Source: Eremomyces bilateralis CBS 781.70
Taxonomy: Eukaryota
Length of the DNA: 64,000 nucleotides
NCBI GenBank assembly: GCA_010015585.1
Contig: ML975153.1
Strand: one strand, 5' to 3'
The notes beneath the pieces are model-generated. The model saw nothing but the letters and a program-made list of their open reading frames with translations. It was not told the origin of the DNA and did no database searches. The position numbers were made by a program, and so were the translations under genes. Positions 11,751 through 23,528 of this stretch are shown piece by piece (within the stretch, counting starts at the first letter, position 1; each line of letters opens with the position of its first letter).

Positions 11751-12874
11751 TTAGGCTTCGGTGTTGGTGATTGTACCTGTGTGAGCGTTCATTTTGCTAA
11801 AAGATACGATGTCATGGAAGTGATGAATGGGATGGACGCCATTTACGCTGCGCTGGATTATCCATGCCATGGTCGTGAATAGTCCTTTGATACCTGTGTG
11901 CATATAGTCCCAACTACTTTACCTCGGGACGAGCTTGTCATCTTGCGATAGCCACAAAGAATTCAGATGTCATCCCATTCTGACTTACATATACTTCTCC
12001 AGTCTACTAATCTTTGCCTGAAAATCCCACTTAGCCTTGCGACCTATTATTTTTTAGTATCAGTACGAAACGACTTCAATTATCAAAAGAGAAGATACCA
12101 CTCCCGCCTAAGCCACCAGAAAGAGGGCTTTTACATGGTCAGCACGCCCTATTTCTGATATGTACACCATATTCTTTTTCCATTCATGCTTCCATAAGTA
12201 GCATGACTACTTAGCAGTTAGGGGTTCTGGGCCTCTAGTGCTTTAACTTTGATATGTTTGTGGTTATTGCATTAGAGCGTGGTCCTCTCCAACATACTTC
12301 ATCCCTGTTGACCGTTTGAGGTTCATCGAACGCCATTTCGTACAGATCTCTGTGTTGTTTAAGAATCAAGCCGCCTGCTTATATTAATCTTTTTCGCTAG
12401 GGCTAGACACGAAAAAGGATTAACTATGGCTAGTTATTCGTATTCAACTAAATTTTGGGATGTTTTACTGTAGTTAATGCAAATATTTATTAGTACGAAT
12501 ATTAATACGCGGAAATTCTAAATTTTTAGTCCTATTCGACTACGAATATTCGTGTTCACACCGAGTTCACTTTTCATTTCGTCTATTTAAGGTTTATTGG
12601 ACGATTTGAGATCGCCATGTCGCCAATTTGAAGATCCAAAATGAGATGAGGACGAATTCGGACCGGACACCAAACATTCGTTTCGGCCCCTCTGCATTCC
12701 ACGGACGGTCATCCCCGAACCCCTGAACGGCCCGAATCTATCTGCATCGCCATGTAAGTTTGCACATCCATAGCTCATAAGACCTCGGCCCCCGAGTGGG
12801 GAAGTCTGAAGATATGTGGGAGCCAAATCTGCCCCACCGTCGCATCTCCATCTCCACACCTGCAATCTGATGCC

Positions 12875-15201
12875 ATGCCCGAACCATCGGATCAACCAGT
12901 TCTTACCAAGCGATCAAGGCTGCGCCTTCAATGTTCGGTATGCCATCAAGCGTATAGCAAGAGAGAACATCTACTTGTAAGTATTCGGTTCGACTCCATC
13001 TACATGACATCCAGAGCTAATACAGGTGTCAGCGTCATGAGCGAACTCGTAAGTTGTAATAACTATGAGAAGATTTTCAGCCCATTGATGGTGTGCAAGA
13101 TACGGGTTACAGGCCGTTTGCCTGTGGCGAGTGCGGTCGGAAGTTCGCCCGCCACGATGCCATGAAGCGGCACGCTAAGCTGCATATTCGTTGTGAGAAC
13201 GTCTCTGGCAACTTAACCCCCCAGGGCACGTCAGCACCTCCTCTTGACCTTAACTGTGGCTCCGTGGACGACCATTCTGCGTTGCCATCGCCAGTCGATG
13301 CGGAGGCGTATGGACTTCATCAACCAACAGAGAAAGGCGCCGTTGCACCTCAAAACTGGGAGGAGACTGTGGTGCTAGACTCAAACGCTCAATTGTTCTG
13401 GCCAGACTCAGAGGACCTGCTCCAGAGCATCATTTCATACGATCCCAGCTTCTGGGCGCAGGCATCGACGTACGCACCCTTTCTTCACGGTCCTTTGACC
13501 CCGCTCGTAGGAAACGGAGCGGCCGCAATTCCACCTCTCATACCCGATTCACGGACTGACAGCGGTCAGTCGGCGGTCCAGCAGCTCAGTGGGTTGATTG
13601 CAACCGCCTTCACAGACATCACTACCGCTGTGGATCTCTCGGATCTCACATCCAGCTTTCTTGACGGCTGCCTGCACATGTTCTTCACACAGGTCAACTG
13701 CGTCTTTCCAATCATTCATAGACCGACCTTTGTCTTCCGAGAATGCTCGGCTCCATTGTTGCTAAACGCCATAGCACTGGGCTCGCTATTCCTCGGAGGG
13801 AAGGATGCCATCCTAAAAGGAGAGGCGCTCTGGAGATTGTCTCATGCGGCGATAGCGACGTCCTGGCATACACTAATAGGGCACAAAGGCCCCTACGACA
13901 AATGTGGAGGCGTGCAGCTAGTCCTCACTGCATTGCTGTCACAGGTGTACGCAATATTTTCCCGTGACAAAACGATCAGGATGACGTCTCAGATCTTCCA
14001 CGGTCTCGGATTCTATTGGGCACGACACTGTGGGATGTTCGAACTAGCCAAGATGCCTAAATTGCCCGTCGACGGCTCCAATTCTGAGCACGAGCAGCAG
14101 ATATGGCGATTTTGGGCGGCTCGCGAAACCCAACTCCGAGCCTTGTTAGGCATGTATATCATGGATGGAATCGTCGCACAGTTCTCGGGGAACCCGACTT
14201 TTGCTTCACACATGGGAAATCCTCTCCCTCTACCTGGCAGCGAGGCCGCTTTTGAAGCCACGACGGCCTCTGAATGGGTTCAACAGACACGCGCCTCTGT
14301 ACCGCATAACCCCAAGCTTTCATATTGCAACGTGTTTCGTGGCCTATTTGGCTACGAGAATTCGGTACCTAGTGAGCTTTCGCTGCCATCATGCCTTTCT
14401 CTTCGGGCCGCCCTCGAAGGTATTGCGTCCTTAGTACTCGAATCGCGCCGTGGTTACGCTGCACCACCAGTTGGATGTCCAGGGACACGCGAGATTTATC
14501 TTGCGTTACTCCGACTTCGTGGCTGCATCATCAATAACCCGTCTTTAAACCCGGTCGACTCCCTATCCCTCCTTCTTCGGTGGCATACCAATGCCCTTTC
14601 TATCTCTGCCGATACAGCGCGGGGAACTCGGCGACTTTGTCATCTCCTCGGCATACAACAGCACATTTTTGGCGGTTCGCCTCGACATGAGGATGATCTA
14701 GACCCGGGGGGGTGGGTCGCAAGCCCCAATGCCAGGCAGGCGTTGCTCCATGCGGTCGAAATGCAGAAGATTGTCGAAGAGTTGCCGCGCGGACGATGTC
14801 ACGGGTTCGAAGTTCCGGTTGGCGTCTTCTGTATTGCATCACTGTATGCGGCACACGTTCGAGCAGGCGTTGTGACGGTGGTATTACCTTCAGTGGTTGA
14901 CTGGGAAGTTGCTGGCCTTGCGATTAGCGACCTGAGTTCAAGGGACTTGGATCACGTATTTGTCGATAGGGTATTGAGAGAGGGTGATACCGCAAAACGA
15001 GAGACAGTCGAATTTGTGGCTGGAAGGTTCCATGGCGGACTCGCGGCTGGAATCGGCACAAGCACGATGACAGTCCACACCAAGAACCTCAGTTATGAAT
15101 TGAGTGCTTTGCTGATCTTGCTGAGGGGGCTAAGCGCACAATGGGGCGTCGCTGGGGAGATGGAGCGAGTCCTGAGTATGTGGATCGCAAAATGCGGTTG
15201 A
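12875..15201 (+). CDS. C2H2 zinc-finger transcription factor with fungal-specific TF domain (Adr1/AmdX-like architecture)
   Basis: Spliced fingers CSVC..KREHLLRHERTH-TGYRPF-ACGEC..RHDAMKRHAKLH include a 16-nt microexon (13033-13048). FPIIHRPTF marks the fungal TF middle domain. Confidence 0.9.
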
Positions 15202-15270: not shown

Positions 15271-17012
15271 CTAGTACCCGTATTTGAACGTATATCGGCG
15301 ATCACCTCGCCTGACGGTGCTGTTTTCTTCGGTTTCGAAATCTGCGTCGGTCCAGGTTGCTATCTTTCTTTCTCTCGATCGATTGATATACACAAATACT
15401 GATCGAATTATCCCAAATCCGACTATTCCGGCAGACATGATACACATCGTTACTGTCAATGGAAATCGATCTAATTGCTGTTAGATTGGCGTCAATTAAA
15501 GACGCTAGTGGCTCACATCTAGGAGAATGTTTCGTCTTGAAGAGCTGCCCTGCTATCACACCGGCCAGGTTAGAGTAGCCGTTGATGCCAATTAAAATCG
15601 AGCGCACACCCTGGCCGTGAATATTAGCCTTGTTCGGTAAAAGACCATGATATACTCCACCTTTTCAGGTGTATTTCCTGCAATCCAAGCAACTATGAGC
15701 GGGCCTCCCGTAAATGCTCCGGCCAGACACACGTGGGTGAATCCATATCTAAGTTTTGAGCTGGTCGAGACGACCATGACGATCAACCCTATAATAGCCA
15801 AAAACATAGCGGACATGACGTGGAGGCTGCGCTCTTTGAAGTAATCACTGCTCGTGACGAAACAGAATAATCCAATTGCTCCGACAATGAATGGAGGCAC
15901 ACTCATCAGGGATGCCTTAACACCTGTATACCCCATTCCCTTGACGAGCAAAGGCATGAAGTAAGAAAAGGCGGACACTGGAAGAGTCGCAGTGATGTTG
16001 AACAATATAACAATGAGTTTCTTCCAATCCGTTAGAGCCTCTTTAAGATCTCGGGATGAGAACCTCCGACTCTCTTTGGTTGTTGCCACCTCTTCTATGT
16101 CTGGAACGTTTTCATCGAGGTCCATTTGCATCCTTCTGACGGCATGAGCGCGCTGCAGCGGGGTAAGAAACCAAGCCGTGTGAAGATCTGCAGGCAGCAT
16201 GACGAATGTTACAATAGCCATCAGCAGTGTGATAGCGCCTTCGAAGATGAACAAGATTTGCCAGTCGTGGAGGACGTCAGACTTGATCTTGAAGAGGCCA
16301 TAGGCTATGAGACCTGCGAAAGCGCCCGCTATAGCGAACATTCCACAAAACAGGCCCAATCGCCTCCCCAGCACGTACTTTGGGTAAAGCGTGCTGAGGT
16401 AGTAGAAAGAGGTGGGAACAAATCCTGCTTCTGCGGCTCCGAGAAGCAAGCGTAATGCAATCAAGGTGGCTCGATTTTTCACCCCGGCATGAGCCATACA
16501 GACTGCCCCCCAAAAGAGCATCATGAGGCAGATCCAGTATTTGGGACGGATATAGCGGCCTATGGCAGCTGAGAATGGTTGCAGAGTCACGAATGTCACA
16601 GATAACTGGAGGATGATTAGCCACATCTATTCTAAAAGGTTAATGATACGCACTAAGGACACAGAGTCGGGAACATCGTCAGGCCTGAGGTTAGCGTCTT
16701 TAACAAAATCTGTCAAGGTTAGATATCGTCTGTCCCGGCCTAGCGCTGTGCATACTTGTTGTTGCGACGAATCCGATATTGGTCTTGTCTATACCACACA
16801 ACTGATAGAGGTCAGTGCAACTACGCCGGAGACAATGCGATAGACAGGCTCACGATGAAGTTGATAGACAGTATCAAGACAACCACCAGGTCCAACTTCA
16901 AGTTAATGGTTCGGTCCAACTCTCGCTCTTCATTGGTGGTGGGCTCATAGTGAGAGTGCTGCTTCCATCGAATCGGGCGTTGCTCTATCGTGACCATATC
17001 GGCTTTCTCCAT
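15271..17012 (-). CDS. MFS transporter, anion:cation symporter (allantoate/nicotinate permease-like) family
   Basis: KLDLVVVLILS, LRLLLGAAEAG, AGAFAGLIAYG, WQILFIFEGAIT, AWFLT and C-terminal RRGDRRYTFKYGY. Several introns. Confidence 0.9.
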
Positions 17013-17515
17013 CTCGATGGATGTGAAAGACCGTAGATATTGGTGTCTGCTAGTGCCTTCGCGAATTGGGAAGGGGATAACCAGTAGCTGGGTTAGGCGT
17101 GGCTTACCTTTGTTATATAGGTTTGGCTGAGCGAAACAGGCGAGATGTAGACGACCCCTCTTCGTTCCACACTAGGGATAGTCCATAATTATTGATTCTG
17201 GACACGCATATGGGAATAATTCCCGGCAAATAGATATGCAGCAGAGGGCATACATCTGCTGTCTTCCGACAGGTAATACAGACCCTGTATTAGATAACGG
17301 CAGGGGCGGAGTCGGTAGCATTTTGATACCTGCTCTGTTGATTCAGCCAATAATCCGAATTCCTTGCCCAAAGTGTCTAGAATTTAGAGGATCACTTTAT
17401 AAATTCGTTCCCGGAAGGAAACGAGGATCGAATTTCCGGCCTTGGTGTTGAACCCTAGCTCTTTTCTTCGCTCTCCACACGCCCCATTCGTTTAAGCTCG
17501 CCTATTCCACATGCA

Positions 17516-17545
17516 TCTCCACAGCTCTCCACAGCTCTCCACAGC
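17516..17545. repeat. Tandem 10-bp repeat (TCTCCACAGC)x3 in the MFS/P450 divergent promoter
   Basis: Read directly. An extra CTCCAC occurs at 17473-17478. Confidence 0.85.
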
Positions 17546-17732
17546 ATCCATGACTGACAGTGACGTTGGAATCCAATGACATCCTGGAGTCGGTACAAGG
17601 AAGTACGAGGATCGGCAGAGTGATGACAAGCCACTTAAGTACCGAAGTAGTTCCATGACGAAGTCAATGCGGAGGACTGAGAAACTTCGATTGCTCCCTT
17701 TCCTCTCATCTCGATTCCAAATAAAGAAGAAA

Positions 17733-19149
17733 ATGGAAAAACTGGGCGTTCCTGGGTCAGTGCTAAGCGGGAATGCTCACGTCAATACCTGCCGGAGGTT
17801 GGATATAGAGCCTCAAAAGGGTTGTCCGGGCGGTGCCAAAGGAAGCTTCCCCGAAAACAGGAAATCCGATTTCCATATTGATCCATCCAACAACCCCGCA
17901 GTTCTGCACGCACAATTCGATCATTTGCGCAGCACTTGTCCTCTCGCATTCACCTTGGATAAGGGCGGTTTTTGGCTCCTAACCAGGTATGCCGACATCA
18001 AGGCATCCGCTGCAGATCATAACACATTCATATCCTCTGTCAAAGCTGTTGTCCCATCCGACCCAAGAGGAACGAGAAGGCCGCCGCTGAACTATGATCC
18101 ACCGAATCATACCCCGTACCGAACCGCATTGGACCGTACACTCCGACCACAAAGACTGGAGAGACTGCGTCCATTGCTCGAAAAGCATGCCGAAGAGGAA
18201 CTGGAAAAACTTCTTCAACGCGGCGGTGGCGACATCTGCACCGAATTTGGAGCGAATTACGCAGCATGGGTTGAAACAGAATGGTTGAACCTTGATCATG
18301 CTTCGGCACCTGTGCTAGCGGAAACAGCAGCGAGGTGGGTGAACGCATGGAGGCAGGAAGATGCTGAAAATGTTATGAAGTACTCGACGAGACTGTACGA
18401 CATTGCGAGAGCGCTGTTTGCAGACAGAAAAGACAATCCACGAGACACGGCATCAGATCCCGCCACTAGCTTACTGGCAGAACAGGACGAGAAAGGGGAG
18501 CCGTTGAAGGAAGAGCATCTAATGTAAGACTGACTATCGGGAGTTTTGAAAACAACAACAATGCTGAGGACTTGATAGCGGTGCACTAAGGCAAAGCTTG
18601 GTGGTCGGCATGGTCGCACCACCACTCATGCTAGGAGGGATATGTAACCATCTCTCGGAGGATCAAGAGCTGCAACAACGGCTGAGAGAAGAACCTGGAC
18701 TGATTGGGCCTGCTGTAGAAGAGTTCATCCGGTTATATGTTCCCTATCGAGGATTCTCGCGAACGGTTTCAAGCAAAGTGGAAATCCACGGTCGCATCAT
18801 CCGACCAGGGCAGCCGGTGACCATGACCTATGCAGCAGGCAACCGGGATCCTCAAGTATTTCCTCGCCCTCATGAGTTCGTCTTAGATCGGCCGAATATC
18901 TCATCCCATCTTGGATTTGGCCGAGGGCGGCACCGTTGTGCGGGAGCGCCTCTCGCGAGGATGTAAGTATCTACACTTCAGTTCAAGTATCTCGCGCTCA
19001 AATGTTATAGGGCCCTTCAAATCGCCGTCTCTGTCATTCTGAAAAGGACGGAGCGTTTCGAAGTGAATGGACCTCTGCAGTTCGTCAGGATGCCGGAAAT
19101 GGGCATCATGAGCTGTCCACTTCGGTTGATCCCCTCTATGGCCGTATGA
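17733..19149 (+). CDS. Cytochrome P450, soluble bacterial-type, 437 aa
   Basis: Exons 17733-18523, 18579-18962 and 19011-19149 total 1314 nt in frame. Motifs DPPNHTPYR, EEFIR (ExxR), AGNRDP, heme ligand FGRGRHRCAG. An upstream in-frame ATG exists at 17655. Confidence 0.92.
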
Positions 19150-19516: not shown

Positions 19517-20287
19517 ATGTCCGATGATGAAGAGACCTACACTATACCCCTAAAAGACCAACGCATCTTCGGCGCTGGCATCAAACGCAAACGCGTCGCC
19601 TTCGTCCCCGCCAGCGCCCCGACCTCCACCCAACCGCCCCTCCCCCGCTCCTCGGGGACCGACGTCGCCGCCAAATACCTGTCTATCGTCCTCCCAGAAA
19701 CCCCATCCCCCTCATCATCGCCCGCGCTATCGGCTGGCCGAACGACAACCGACGGTACACCACGAGATACACAGAGCGCTCCGCCCGCAGCCCCGACCGT
19801 CCCCGCCTCCAAGCCACCGCACCACGCTCCCGAGCAAATCTGCCCCGCGTGCAACCAGACCGTCTCCTCCACCGCGCCTAACCTGCACGCCGCGAGCATC
19901 ACGCACCAGATCTCCCTCCCGCACTCGCACCCGCCGTCCTCCCTCGACCGCACGCGCAAAGGCCTCCACTACCTCCAATCGTACGGCTGGGACCCCGATT
20001 CGCGCACCGGGCTGGGGTCGCGGGGAGAGGGGATCGTAGCGCCGATTCGGGCGCGGGAGAAGCGGGATACGGCGGGGTTAGGGTTGGTGGAGGCGATGCG
20101 GAAGGAGGGGGAGGGGAGGGCGAGGTTGGAGGAGCGGGTGAGGGAGCGGGTGGAGAAGGGGAGGAAGTTGGGGGCCAGGGAGGTGAGGGAGATGGAAGAG
20201 GGGAAGAAGAGGCGGGGGGAGAGGGTGATGAGGATGTTTCGGGAGGAACGAGATTTGGAACGGTATCTGGGGCCGGATGCGGATTGA
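19517..20287 (+). CDS. G-patch domain protein
   Basis: KGLHYLQSYGWDPDSRTGLGSRGEGIVAPI..DTAGLG G-patch motif, preceded by a C-x2-C..H..H finger-like element. Single exon. Confidence 0.88.
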   Translation: MSDDEETYTIPLKDQRIFGAGIKRKRVAFVPASAPTSTQPPLPRSSGTDVAAKYLSIVLPETPSPSSSPALSAGRTTTDGTPRDTQSAPPAAPTVPASKPPHHAPEQICPACNQTVSSTAPNLHAASITHQISLPHSHPPSSLDRTRKGLHYLQSYGWDPDSRTGLGSRGEGIVAPIRAREKRDTAGLGLVEAMRKEGEGRARLEERVRERVEKGRKLGAREVREMEEGKKRRGERVMRMFREERDLERYLGPDAD

Positions 20288-21204: not shown

Positions 21205-23528
21205 CTACGGTTCCTCATGCAAAATATGCCAACTCCGCCGCACGAAATCCGACACGCGCATCGCCACTTCGTTCGTGCTACCCCCGCTCGCCTCCTTCTC
21301 GATGAAATCCTTCGCCACCCACAGCCGCATCTCGGTGCCGTCCTCGAGCATCGGGACCTCCTGGTTCGGCTGGTCGGGGCTTCGCAGCTTCCGGATCGGG
21401 TCGGGCATCTCCATGCGCGGGAAGCCGGGGACGCGCGGGCCGAAATGGCGGGTCACCAGGATGCTGTAGATGACGTCGCGGTTCTCCTTGAGGCCGAGGA
21501 TGAGGCGCACGGATTTCAGGGCGCTTTCGACGCGCTTGGATTCCTCGAGGTTGGAGTCGGAGGCGCGGAGGGTCAGGAAGAGGCCCACGAGGCGCCAGAA
21601 CTCGATTTCCCAGGATTTGAGCTCGGGGAGGTGCGGGGGGTAGTCGGCGAGGGAGATGGGGTTGTCGCGGAGTTGTTGGCCGGTGAGGAGGTGTTCGAGG
21701 ACTTCGAGGCGTGGGAGGAGTTCTTTGAGTTGCAGGGTGTCGGCAGGGTGGTTGTCAGGATCGATGTTGGAGACGGGTGGTAATGTGCCGTTGGTGTGGG
21801 GTTGGGTGGCCGGTGCGTAGGATTGGAATGGCCGAATCATGCAGAAGAGCTTCCAGACAAGCTGCATTCCGAGAGACCGGATCGTTTGCATGCCGTCATA
21901 GTCGGATTGGGGGACTTTACGCCATCGATCGATGTAGTGGGCGAAGAGGGTGAGAAGGGGCCGGTTCGTGATGAGACGACTCCAGCCTTTTGTGGTGTAC
22001 CAGGTGGTTTCGAGCATCGCGTCAAGTCCGGGGGCGTAGTCGTTGGTGTACAATAATTTGATCTCAGCTATGGAGCTTTCAGGGATATTGTACCCCAGAT
22101 TGGCTACTGGTGGACTCGTGGGAGACCATCCACCAACATGGTACAGGTCGTCAATCGTTATTCGTTTTGGGGCTTAGGACCGTCAGGTGCATCCTCCATC
22201 TTCATAGGCACATGCTGAACTTACGCTTATAGTCTGCCGTGATCAGGGGAGATTTGTTGCTGTGGTACGCCGGCAGTGTCGGCATCGTCGAGATGAAAGT
22301 AGGGTCGCCGAGGGGTTCACCAATGTGACCAATCGGTTTAACTGGTTGCGGACCTGGTTGTTGTGGTGGATGGGCGGAAGGATAGTAGTGTTGAGCTGCT
22401 GGTGGTGACGCCGACTGGGCGCCTGCTTGTGTATGGTGCGAGTTAGATGGGTGCGCGGGTTGGAGGTTGGCAGGAATGGTGGATTTGAACATAGGATCAT
22501 AACCTAGACAATCTCGTTTGCTTTTCTTGCAGTTGTTGCAGAAGGGGTGGGCTTCGTCACACTGTGAAGAACCAGTTAGTTGTTATGCGCAGCTTCGCAT
22601 GGAGGTTGTTGTGTTTTCCGGACAAAACATGAGAGTGATGTGAACTGTGTATCTTGCTGCATGCGCAAGGGGAAGATGTCTAGCGCCACGCCCGCTTTAT
22701 GACCAGTAGTCCCCCAGGCCCAGCCCTTTAAAAAACCTCACAAGTGATGTAGCGGCTCAGTCATGGCAATACATGGGAACGTTTCAGGAATATGTAGGCT
22801 CGATAATCGATGTCAATGGGTGATAACACTCCGCAGCACTCACCTTTATTCTTCGCTTCCGACAAGTCAAACAACCGGTCTTCGTCCTCCTCTTGATCTC
22901 CTTCTTATGCCTTCCATCCGACATCATCCGCTGCTCCATGCCTTCCTGGTGCGGTAGCGGGTAGCGTAGGTGGTGTGAGCCATCGTAATGCGAATGCGAC
23001 GAGTGTCCTAGAAGGGTCATGTGGTTCCCGGCTTGTGTGAAATAATTGGACACATGCGACGGAGGACTAGGGGAAACGCTGCTTTGCAATGACGGTGGAT
23101 TCGGATGTGGAGGCAGCGGCTGTTGGCCGTCCATGGTGCGAATCGGGGGGAGGTTAATTGAGGGGAGAGTGATGTTTGGTGGGGAGGAAATGGAGGAGTA
23201 GTGGTGAGGATGCGGAGGCGCGATTTGATCTGGAACGTACGTGTATGAGTAAGCGGACTGCATTTTGGCTAAAGGGATCATCGGGCACCAAGATGAGGGG
23301 AAGTTGGAAGGAGAATGGGAGTGGTGAATAGTGGCAGCAAATGGGGAAACGATGGTATTATTTACTTTGACTTTCCGTGCCAGGCTCTTGTTTCGGCTGC
23401 GGCAGTGGTTCCGTCGGCGTCTGCTGAACGTGGGGAGCACCTGCCGGTGGTTCTTCCTGGGGCGGCATCATTTCTTTCTTCTCGTCCTGCTGCCGGTCCT
23501 CGTCGTGGCGTGGCGTCTCGTCGGCCAT
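21205..23528 (-). CDS. Zn(II)2Cys6 transcription factor
   Basis: KRRTKTGCLTCRKRRIK|CDEAHPFCNNCKKSKRDCLGYDP across intron 22562-22843. First exon MADETPRH... (ATG 23528) splices in frame via intron 23269-23365. A further short intron lies near 22174-22226. Confidence 0.9.

Follow-up and report, generated by a model that had tools for sequence, protein, structure and literature searches.

P450s without the acid-alcohol pair of the I-helix are already known, and so is one bacterial-derived soluble P450 of fungi. Soluble bacterial-type fungal P450s are, to our knowledge, few, and only one has been studied well: P450nor (CYP55), the textbook example of actinobacterial origin, which functions in fungi with no ferredoxin system of the bacterial kind. 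For CYP55, a bacterial ancestry has been proposed (PMC4122930). The bacterial CYP255 enzymes GcoA and SyoA are reported to carry a Gln-Glu acid-base pair in the I-helix that is essential for activity, and SyoA runs on H2O2 (PMC11842817); in CYP199A4, Arg92, Ser95, Ser244 and Arg243 are described as holding the carboxylate of benzoate (PMC11854964). Here, we describe a P450 gene at positions 17733-19149 (plus strand) of a 64,000-nucleotide stretch, hereafter the window, of the dothideomycete Eremomyces bilateralis CBS 781.70 (GCA_010015585.1, contig ML975153.1, 1.5 Mb). We show that it encodes an intact P450 with a heme-thiolate center and a class-I fold, whose proton-relay positions are occupied by the hydrophobic residues Val-Ala. 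The gene does not stand alone: it forms one half of a conserved fungal pair with a transporter gene of the major facilitator superfamily (MFS), and its closest relatives outside the fungi are actinobacterial.

Set beside the described systems, the Eremomyces protein resembles P450nor in being soluble, about 400 aa long and anchorless and in its proposed bacterial ancestry, and differs from it in the I-helix (VGMVAPP versus the AGNAT quoted for CYP55 in an initial annotation of this DNA) and in gene context, its neighbours being a transporter and a regulator rather than nitrogen-oxide genes; none of the 60 top-scoring sequence matches in the PDB (E <= 1.4e-27 throughout) was a P450nor chain, the identity to P450nor itself not having been computed. 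CYP199A4/A2, the 4-methoxybenzoate O-demethylase of Rhodopseudomonas, is a class-I fold match (TM about 0.75/0.82), but CYP199A4 shares 26-27% identity, below the 40% family level, and keeps Asp251-Thr252 where the fungal protein has Val-Ala. CYP199A4 also has dedicated ferredoxin partners. The CYP255 family comprises soluble bacterial P450s of aromatic catabolism that, like the fungal protein, lack the acid-alcohol pair, whereas Val276-Ala277 offers no group comparable to their Gln-Glu. A likeness to CYP152 (P450BSbeta, OleT) lies in the missing acid-Thr pair, a Pro in the I-helix and Arg-held carboxylate substrates; however, CYP152 places Arg-Pro at the acid-Thr position beside the heme, whereas Arg268 of the fungal protein lies 8 residues upstream, two helical turns off, and its Val-Ala is followed by Pro-Pro. 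Chains of CYP255 and CYP152 were absent from the best sequence and fold matches. Judged by such comparisons, the protein appears to lie outside CYP55, CYP199, CYP255 and CYP152, and under the naming rule that more than 40% identity denotes the same CYP family it would fall into a bacterial family, termed type C below, with a bacterial CYP number. A literature search of openly accessible papers found no description of the fungal or type C family, including none naming CHGG_08480. The gene represents a second, independent soluble bacterial-type lineage in fungi, with unusually clean evidence of transfer in the form of sequence identity, nesting, shared introns and a new gene pairing.

Direct reading of the sequence gives three exons and a spliced product of 437 aa, which is 100% identical over 437 aa to the database protein 'putative cytochrome P450 [Eremomyces bilateralis CBS 781.70]' (P0004); the window contains no second P450 locus of this kind. 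Exon 1 (17733-18523) encodes residues 1-263 and two bases of codon 264 and carries the B-C loop PSDPRGTRRPPLNYDPPNHTPYR, exon 2 (18579-18962) encodes residues 264-392 with the I-helix, the ExxR motif and the heme-binding loop, and exon 3 (19011-19149) encodes residues 393-437, comprising the end of the L-helix, the C-terminal sheets and a TGA stop. Transcript evidence comes from one public run, X1, whose RNA status is only guessed, yet its contig covers 17532-18523 without a break, skips exactly the 55-nt GT..AG intron 1 (18524-18578) and resumes to 19242; intron 1 is therefore real, and X1 contains spliced RNA. It follows from this exact skipping that the I-helix lies wholly within exon 2 and that alternative splicing there cannot give AGxET. 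Three outcomes that the initial annotation had set against its own reading did not occur: splicing at 18524-18578 that restores AGxET is excluded by the confirmed intron; no upstream exon, transmembrane-encoding or other, is joined in the X1 contig, which runs unbroken from 17532 into exon 1 with no hydrophobic frame upstream; and the closest relatives are bacterial rather than members of a vertically inherited eukaryotic CYP clan.

The Pfam P450 family (PF00067) matches exon 2 with an E value of 2.1e-14, and the hallmarks of the superfamily are present as DPPNHTPYR (the DPPxHTxYR stretch), EEFIR (ExxR) and HLGFGRGRHRCAG. The sequence FGRGRHRCAG (codons 18916-18945) satisfies the FxxGxxxCxG heme-thiolate loop, including the Cys ligand, Cys384 (18937-18939), and in a 24-sequence alignment Cys384, Phe377, Gly378, Gly380, His382, Glu312 and Arg315 are invariant. 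No membrane anchor was found: the highest 19-residue Kyte-Doolittle mean is 0.61, also when the frame is opened upstream to 17580, the 200 nt before the ATG encode no hydrophobic stretch, and residues 1-36 are disordered in an AlphaFold model with an overall pLDDT of 91.6. Foldseek returned a probability of 1.00 against many P450 structures; the top hits of both Foldseek and HMMER are without exception class-I P450s from bacteria (CYP125, CYP108, P450cin, CYP153A, CYP109 and CYP199A4), with TM values of about 0.75-0.8 by query for the best structural ones. Finer naming was not obtained, as the nine NCBIfam families that match the protein all score far below cut-off and the ESM Atlas yielded generic bacterial 'cytochrome P450' clusters only.

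The I-helix reads RQSLVVGMVAPP, and its codons (18589-18624) encode R268-Q269-S-L-V-V-G274-M-V276-A277-P-P279. HMMER aligned 'slvvGMVAPP' to 'llvvAGNETT' of the CYP125MRCA structure, which places Gly274 at the conserved Gly, Val276 at the acid position and Ala277 at the Thr position, followed by Pro278-Pro279. The typical, though not universal, oxygen-activation motif (A/G)Gx(D/E)(T/S) is thus replaced by V273-G274-M275-V276-A277. The initial annotation had already read this product as a soluble bacterial-type P450 of 437 aa without an endoplasmic reticulum anchor and without the acid-Thr pair; the hydropathy maximum, the disordered N-terminus and the bacterial-type motifs bear out the first part, and the HMMER and multiple alignments, with Val276-Ala277 at the pair, the second. 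As a separate observation, the top PDB sequence match, 22yx_A (E 1.4e-37), named only 'Cytochrome P450', has the I-helix AGFEVP, in which the acid is kept and Thr is replaced by Val, with Pro next.

Fungal orthologues, 55-67% identical to the Eremomyces protein, occur in Dothideomycetes, Sordariomycetes and Eurotiomycetes and are all about 400 aa long and anchorless. In an exhaustive profile-free search, which retrieved 30,332 proteins at E <= 0.001 and 667 at E <= 1e-30, the nearest non-fungal representatives (34-41% identity; including Amycolatopsis, Solirubrobacteraceae and 'Microbacter sp. GSS18') also have an odd helix (RQxxxAGH(V/G/I)AP and similar), with the canonical AGH(D/E/N)(S/T)T appearing in more remote ones. 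In the alignment, (V/I)-A occupies both pair positions in all 28 rows, P0004 to P0126, and neither Arg268 nor Gln269 varies among the fungal sequences or across the whole odd-helix clade. Two proteins near this clade, P0150 and P0160 (35-36% identity), carry a fused reductase-type C-terminal part, with a 2Fe-2S Fer2 domain in both and NAD-binding domains in P0160 only, so that self-sufficient forms exist in its vicinity.

Inspection of the I-helix in all 175 P450-like open reading frames (ORFs) at 78 bacterial genome loci around these relatives revealed several paralogous types, often in tandem, among which types A, B, C and D and a proteobacterial type are all without the acid-Thr pair: type A has AAHVAP or AGHVAP, type B VVGM(V/I)AP(C/S/I) and the proteobacterial type VVGIIAP; type D was found in Microbacterium. 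Type C, from actinobacterial loci, has RQSLVVG(M/L)VAPP, identical to the fungal helix, and five type C ORFs (L001, L021, L060, L063 and L064; from an Amycolatopsis metagenome-assembled genome [MAG], two Microbacterium genomes and two actinobacterial MAGs) share 55-58% identity with P0004 over about 375-410 residues. A search with one type C ORF listed the genera Microbacterium, Paramicrobacterium, Blastococcus, Geodermatophilus, Amycolatopsis, Nonomuraea, Pseudonocardia, Nocardia, Saccharothrix, Streptomyces and others. The distribution nevertheless looks patchy; among 401 genomes of the class around the Microbacterium genome G001, with 4 candidates scored per genome, a type C match (E <= 1e-120) was present in G001 alone. 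By identity above 50%, the RQSLVVG(M/L)VAPP helix and tree placement, the fungal P450 is itself a type C member. It shares with the actinobacterial proteins the helix, the length, the missing anchor and the clade in which it is nested; the bacterial genes differ in having no introns, a GC content of 0.65-0.75, ABC transporters, PaaX/MarR regulators and a second odd-helix P450 as neighbours, whereas the fungal gene has two introns and an MFS partner. The sequences compared here show that the odd I-helix is no fungal peculiarity, being present already in the bacterial donors and their paralogues. The claims of transfer, introns and solubility in the initial annotation stand, with the correction that the helix came from the donor; its further suggestion of non-canonical or substrate-assisted chemistry may hold, going by the missing acid-Thr pair. 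With both O2-activation residues hydrophobic throughout a sizeable uncharacterised clade, each member offers a test case for the formation of Compound I in their absence.

In a maximum-likelihood tree of 59 rows (LG+C20+F+G4), comprising 10 named fungal proteins, 19 type C proteins, the other types and 7 canonical relatives as the outgroup, the fungal sequences form a single clade (100/100), which joins seven type C proteins from Nocardia, Amycolatopsis, Saccharothrix, Microbacterium, Paramicrobacterium and a MAG (99/92); type C and fungi together are supported at 100/100, none of 200 bootstrap trees recovers type C alone as monophyletic, and all deeper sister groups are bacterial. Other eukaryotic CYP clans were left out of the tree; they are excluded by the searches with sequence and fold, whose close matches were all bacterial. 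The nesting of the fungal clade among type C proteins indicates that the transfer ran from Actinomycetota to fungi and that the helix without the acid-Thr pair was inherited from the donor. That the fungal gene is a xenologue of actinobacterial type C, passed to an ancestor of several Pezizomycotina lineages, is strongly supported, and we regard the identity as a class-I P450 and the transfer from Actinomycetota, taken together, as very probable. One grouping weighs against the simplest form of this history: Periconia digitata, a dothideomycete, groups with Sordariales (100/89), so that the branching departs from the species tree and a single ancient transfer followed by vertical descent is too simple. 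Later fungus-to-fungus transfer or hidden paralogy within the fungal clade would be possible explanations.

After the transfer, the gene gained two introns, took on a host-like base composition and came to lie head to head with a fungal MFS gene, as is shown by the comparison of bacterial and fungal loci. A scan of metagenome contigs gave 80 loci, of which those with a GC content of 0.65-0.75 are colinear with the protein and bacterial, and those with 0.47-0.58 are broken; 17 are interrupted at both 264/265 and 392/393, the two intron sites of the window, three more are broken at 392/393 alone, and several at 264/265 alone. The P450 gene of the window has a GC content of 0.49-0.52, similar to that of its flanks, versus 0.65-0.75 in the bacterial loci. 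Horizontal acquisition of a now intron-bearing gene, as initially proposed, is accordingly upheld by the nesting in type C, the 55-58% identity and the intron positions shared over fungal contigs. The bacterial look of the gene might also be explained by contamination of the assembly or, alternatively, by membership in a vertically inherited eukaryotic clan, and the protein is indeed far nearer to bacterial P450s than to typical fungal ones. However, a spliceosomal intron is removed in RNA, the GC content is fungal, fungal neighbours lie on both sides in a 1.5-Mb contig, the same gene, introns and synteny recur in many fungi, and the fungal clade is nested in bacterial sequences with strong support; as far as present data go, both of these explanations are refuted.

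The partner of the P450 gene is a divergent, intron-containing MFS transporter gene (15274-17012, minus strand; P0411, 499 aa, PF07690 [MFS_1]), separated from it by an intergenic region (17013-17732) between both start codons, of which RNA contigs cover 17300-17549 and 17532 onward. All relatives of P0411 are fungal and bear source-given names such as allantoate permease or transport protein, HxnP and NMN permease (nicotinate-permease-like); going by these names, P0411 would belong to the organic-anion (anion:cation-symporter) branch of the MFS. If the window and the near-duplicate contigs L093/L095, L130/L134 and L163/L164 are counted, all 25 fungal loci with over 1500 bp of sequence upstream of the P450 have an MFS gene there in divergent orientation. 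At a limit of 600 bp the tally is 29 of 30, and even at the exception, L157, tblastn matched the first exon of the MFS gene. The pairing is also seen as adjacent locus tags in the named genomes of Penicillium riverlandense (N7474_000212/213) and Neopestalotiopsis clavispora (G7054_g8140/8141). A transcription factor gene (approximately 12758-15201, plus strand), with C2H2-type fingers recognised by eye and a Fungal_trans domain (PF04082, E 1.2e-11), has counterparts near the P450 in 7 metagenome loci besides the window, and the Aspergillus unguis gene model P0124 fuses a transcription factor to the P450. A carboxylesterase gene is located near the P450 in 6 fungal loci, and no recurrent families beyond transporter, regulator and esterase were found in the fungal contigs. 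The transporter-P450-regulator module provides a direct experimental handle.

In the same X1 contig that lacks intron 1, the 48-nt GT..AG intron 2 (18963-19010), whose position is common to the fungal contigs, is retained, and read-through leads to an in-frame TAA at 18964-18966 and to a protein that ends in ...PLARM, without the end of the L-helix and the C-terminal sheets. That the sole RNA-type contig predicts a truncated, probably inactive protein weighs against a functional enzyme and raises the alternative of a decaying relic or an unproductively expressed gene, whose transcript keeps intron 2 and whose protein is cut after the heme loop. Ten of 20 named fungal gene models likewise terminate at the exon 2/intron 2 junction, for which reason retention of intron 2, or difficulty in calling it, seems common. 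Against decay, however, the protein encoded by exon 3 is kept in full-length fungal orthologues and colinear with bacterial homologues, the catalytic motifs are all intact, the orthologues are 55-67% identical across classes, and the MFS pairing is kept at every testable locus; besides, RNA contigs drop rarer isoforms and so prove the presence of isoforms, not their absence. We therefore consider a relic highly improbable, and the conservation of exon 3 in fungi, with its bacterial colinearity, argues that the fully spliced form would be the functional one. Splicing of intron 2 may be regulated or inefficient, or annotation may systematically overlook the last exon, which encodes 45 aa.

Gene neighbourhoods of the bacterial relatives bear on the function of the fungal enzyme. 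At 32 type C loci, a PaaX-like regulator occurs in 13, components of an ABC system as a fused permease in 8, a TOBE-type ATPase in 11 and an SBP_bac_1-type binding protein in 6, and PGA_cap in 6; MarR, an AMP-forming CoA ligase, carboxylesterase, Abhydrolase_10 and MmgE/PrpD also occur, and nearly every locus has another odd-helix P450. LigM, the folate-dependent vanillate/3-O-methylgallate O-demethylase, lies near type C in L060, L096 and L107, with 869-896 bits against an NCBIfam equivalog cut-off of 580; in L060 the LigM-type gene comes after PurU, and in L107 LigM is accompanied by an extradiol dioxygenase, a MetE-like methyltransferase and, with 446.6 bits against a cut-off of 440, 4-oxalomesaconate tautomerase. 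The neighbours of types A and B include a gentisate 1,2-dioxygenase-like gene (below cut-off) and FAA-hydrolase, thiolase and tannase/feruloyl-esterase genes. Overall, the bacterial neighbourhoods point to catabolism of aromatic acids and their esters, although the picture is not uniform and linkage to LigM is that of a minority.

The role of CYP199A4 in aromatic acid catabolism fits these neighbourhoods, and in CYP199A4 an Arg and a small polar residue stand eight positions before the acid, by register as Arg268/Gln269 do in the fungal protein. The acid of CYP199A4 is D251 (from a PDB title), and HMMER paired residues 30-102 of the query segment with residues 230-302 in the chain of a CYP199A4 construct, the offset being equal at both ends, from which it follows that Arg268/Gln269 lie eight residues before Val276 as Arg243/Ser244 lie before Asp251. 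We infer from this helix register and the equal offsets that Arg268/Gln269 may be equivalent to Arg243/Ser244. The anion-type transporter, the bacterial context and the register together suggest a carboxylate substrate that is anchored off the heme and oxidised at its far end. In the scheme that we propose, (i) the MFS transporter would import an organic acid, for which an aromatic (methoxy)carboxylate from plants or lignin, possibly released by the esterase, is the likeliest candidate; (ii) the P450 would hold the carboxylate through Arg268/Gln269 of the I-helix and arginines of the B-C loop, away from the heme, and O-demethylate or hydroxylate the substrate at its far end; (iii) protons for the activation of O2 (or H2O2) would be supplied by ordered water or a polar group of the substrate, since acid and alcohol side chains are absent from the I-helix; and (iv) the product would enter ordinary ring-cleavage pathways.

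Several points weigh against this functional part of the reading. It relies on gene neighbourhood and one helix register, and the putative match of Arg268 to Arg243 is one of register, to a protein of just 26-27% identity. LigM stands beside type C in just 3 of 32 loci, and the PGA_cap, MmgE/PrpD, CoA-transferase III, HGD-D-like and peptide-type ABC transporter neighbours are unspecific for methoxy-aromatics. Class-I P450s receive their electrons from a ferredoxin and a ferredoxin reductase, and a scan of 43 small ORFs beside type C (out of 78 candidates) turned up neither a ferredoxin nor a reductase gene that could serve monooxygenase turnover. An aromatic-acid oxidase (O-demethylase or hydroxylase) with non-canonical proton delivery is therefore a tentative assignment, to which we give somewhat less than an even chance, and the explanation as a whole, in which identity, transfer and this function are blended, has a chance slightly better than even. 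A bolder version, in which fungi would have acquired the MFS-P450(-regulator-esterase) module horizontally and use it to demethylate or hydroxylate methoxy-aromatic acids from lignin (e.g., syringate, veratrate or a relative) through an oxidant formed without the acid-alcohol pair or, in fungi, a ferredoxin partner, is unlikely; were it true, the whole bacterial and fungal clade (types A-E, all without the pair and often in tandem) would constitute a new mechanistic class of P450s, and a missing enzyme of fungal aromatic catabolism would be supplied. If the aromatic-acid reading is true, a partner-independent demethylase would be useful and of interest for lignin valorisation; if it is false, a well-documented interdomain transfer of an enzyme gene is left. 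A demethylase acting on trigonelline or another N-methyl compound, to which the HxnP and nicotinate-permease-like names of the MFS relatives had pointed, was set aside, the folate enzyme beside type C being of the LigM type.

The heme-thiolate center need not activate O2 at all, as CYP74, prostacyclin synthase, P450nor and XplA exemplify. The fungal enzyme might thus rearrange or cleave a peroxide, carry out a reduction, use NAD(P)H directly or act as an obligate H2O2-dependent peroxygenase. Such chemistry would account for hydrophobic residues at both proton-relay positions in every fungal and type C member and in the paralogues, for a class-I P450 working in the fungal cytosol without ferredoxin and for the lack of a ferredoxin or reductase gene among the small ORFs scanned beside type C, although bacterial P450 genes are often without adjacent partner genes, so that this last absence says little. 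The lignin-aromatic demethylases of CYP255 are also without the acid-alcohol pair, and SyoA is described as working through the peroxide shunt only (PMC11842817). On the other hand, Val-Ala lacks an acid-base group such as CYP255 (Gln-Glu), SscaCYP and CYP152 (Arg plus the substrate carboxylate) are reported to use for H2O2, the close canonical relatives retain AGH(N/D/E)(S/T)T, and the fold matches ordinary monooxygenases. We judge chemistry without O2 activation to be rather unlikely.

A further alternative to catabolism is that the P450 tailors a secondary metabolite, in biosynthesis or self-resistance. Many of the bacterial-type PDB matches are biosynthetic (CftA, MycG, CYP113A1 and P450sky), one type C entry in UniRef bears the source-given name '5-methyl-1-naphthoate 3-hydroxylase', and a phylogenomic paper on CYP55 ties bacterial-derived fungal P450s to secondary metabolism. 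The sole partners conserved over the fungal loci, however, are the transporter, the regulator and the esterase; no polyketide synthase, nonribosomal peptide synthetase or terpene synthase was found among the recurrent families of the fungal contigs, the recurrent families alone having been scanned against Pfam; the neighbours at 9-28 kb of the window are MFS, transcription factors and a G-patch protein; and the bacterial neighbourhoods are catabolic. Tailoring is therefore a quite improbable function, and aromatic-acid oxidation is preferred to it.

Some features lie outside these arguments. Among the bacterial relatives, Gaiellaceae/Solirubrobacterales MAGs (L002-L052; e.g., L012:6842-9152 and L006:3209-9206) have runs of two to four P450 genes whose ends overlap, in the order canonical, canonical, MarR, type B, type A, with an adjoining tannase-family gene, and types A and B lack the acid-Thr pair there too. 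The proteobacterial VVGIIAP members (L053, L056, L058, L059, L072 and L074-L076) are surrounded by LacI, PGA_cap (CapA-like), MmgE/PrpD and peptide-type ABC genes, a context unlike the actinobacterial one. In the window, the P450 gene is followed downstream by a G-patch protein gene (19520-20287; Pfam) and, at 21205-23467 on the minus strand, by ORFs that resemble a Zn2Cys6-type regulator by eye, neither of which recurs in other fungal loci. In-frame ATGs at 17655 and 17667 could extend the N-terminus of the P450 by as many as 26 basic residues (MTKSMRRTEKLRLLPFLSSRFQIKKK); a mitochondrial-targeting reading of this possible extension (ATG 17655) was dropped, the N-termini of the orthologues being unlike each other. 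In the MFS/P450 intergenic region, a 10-nt unit (CTCCACAGCT-like) is directly repeated three times at about 17511-17545, where two RNA contigs overlap and break, and may be a regulator site or a mere break point of the assembly. Short upstream ORFs precede the P450 with starts at 17511, 17550, 17576 and 17623.

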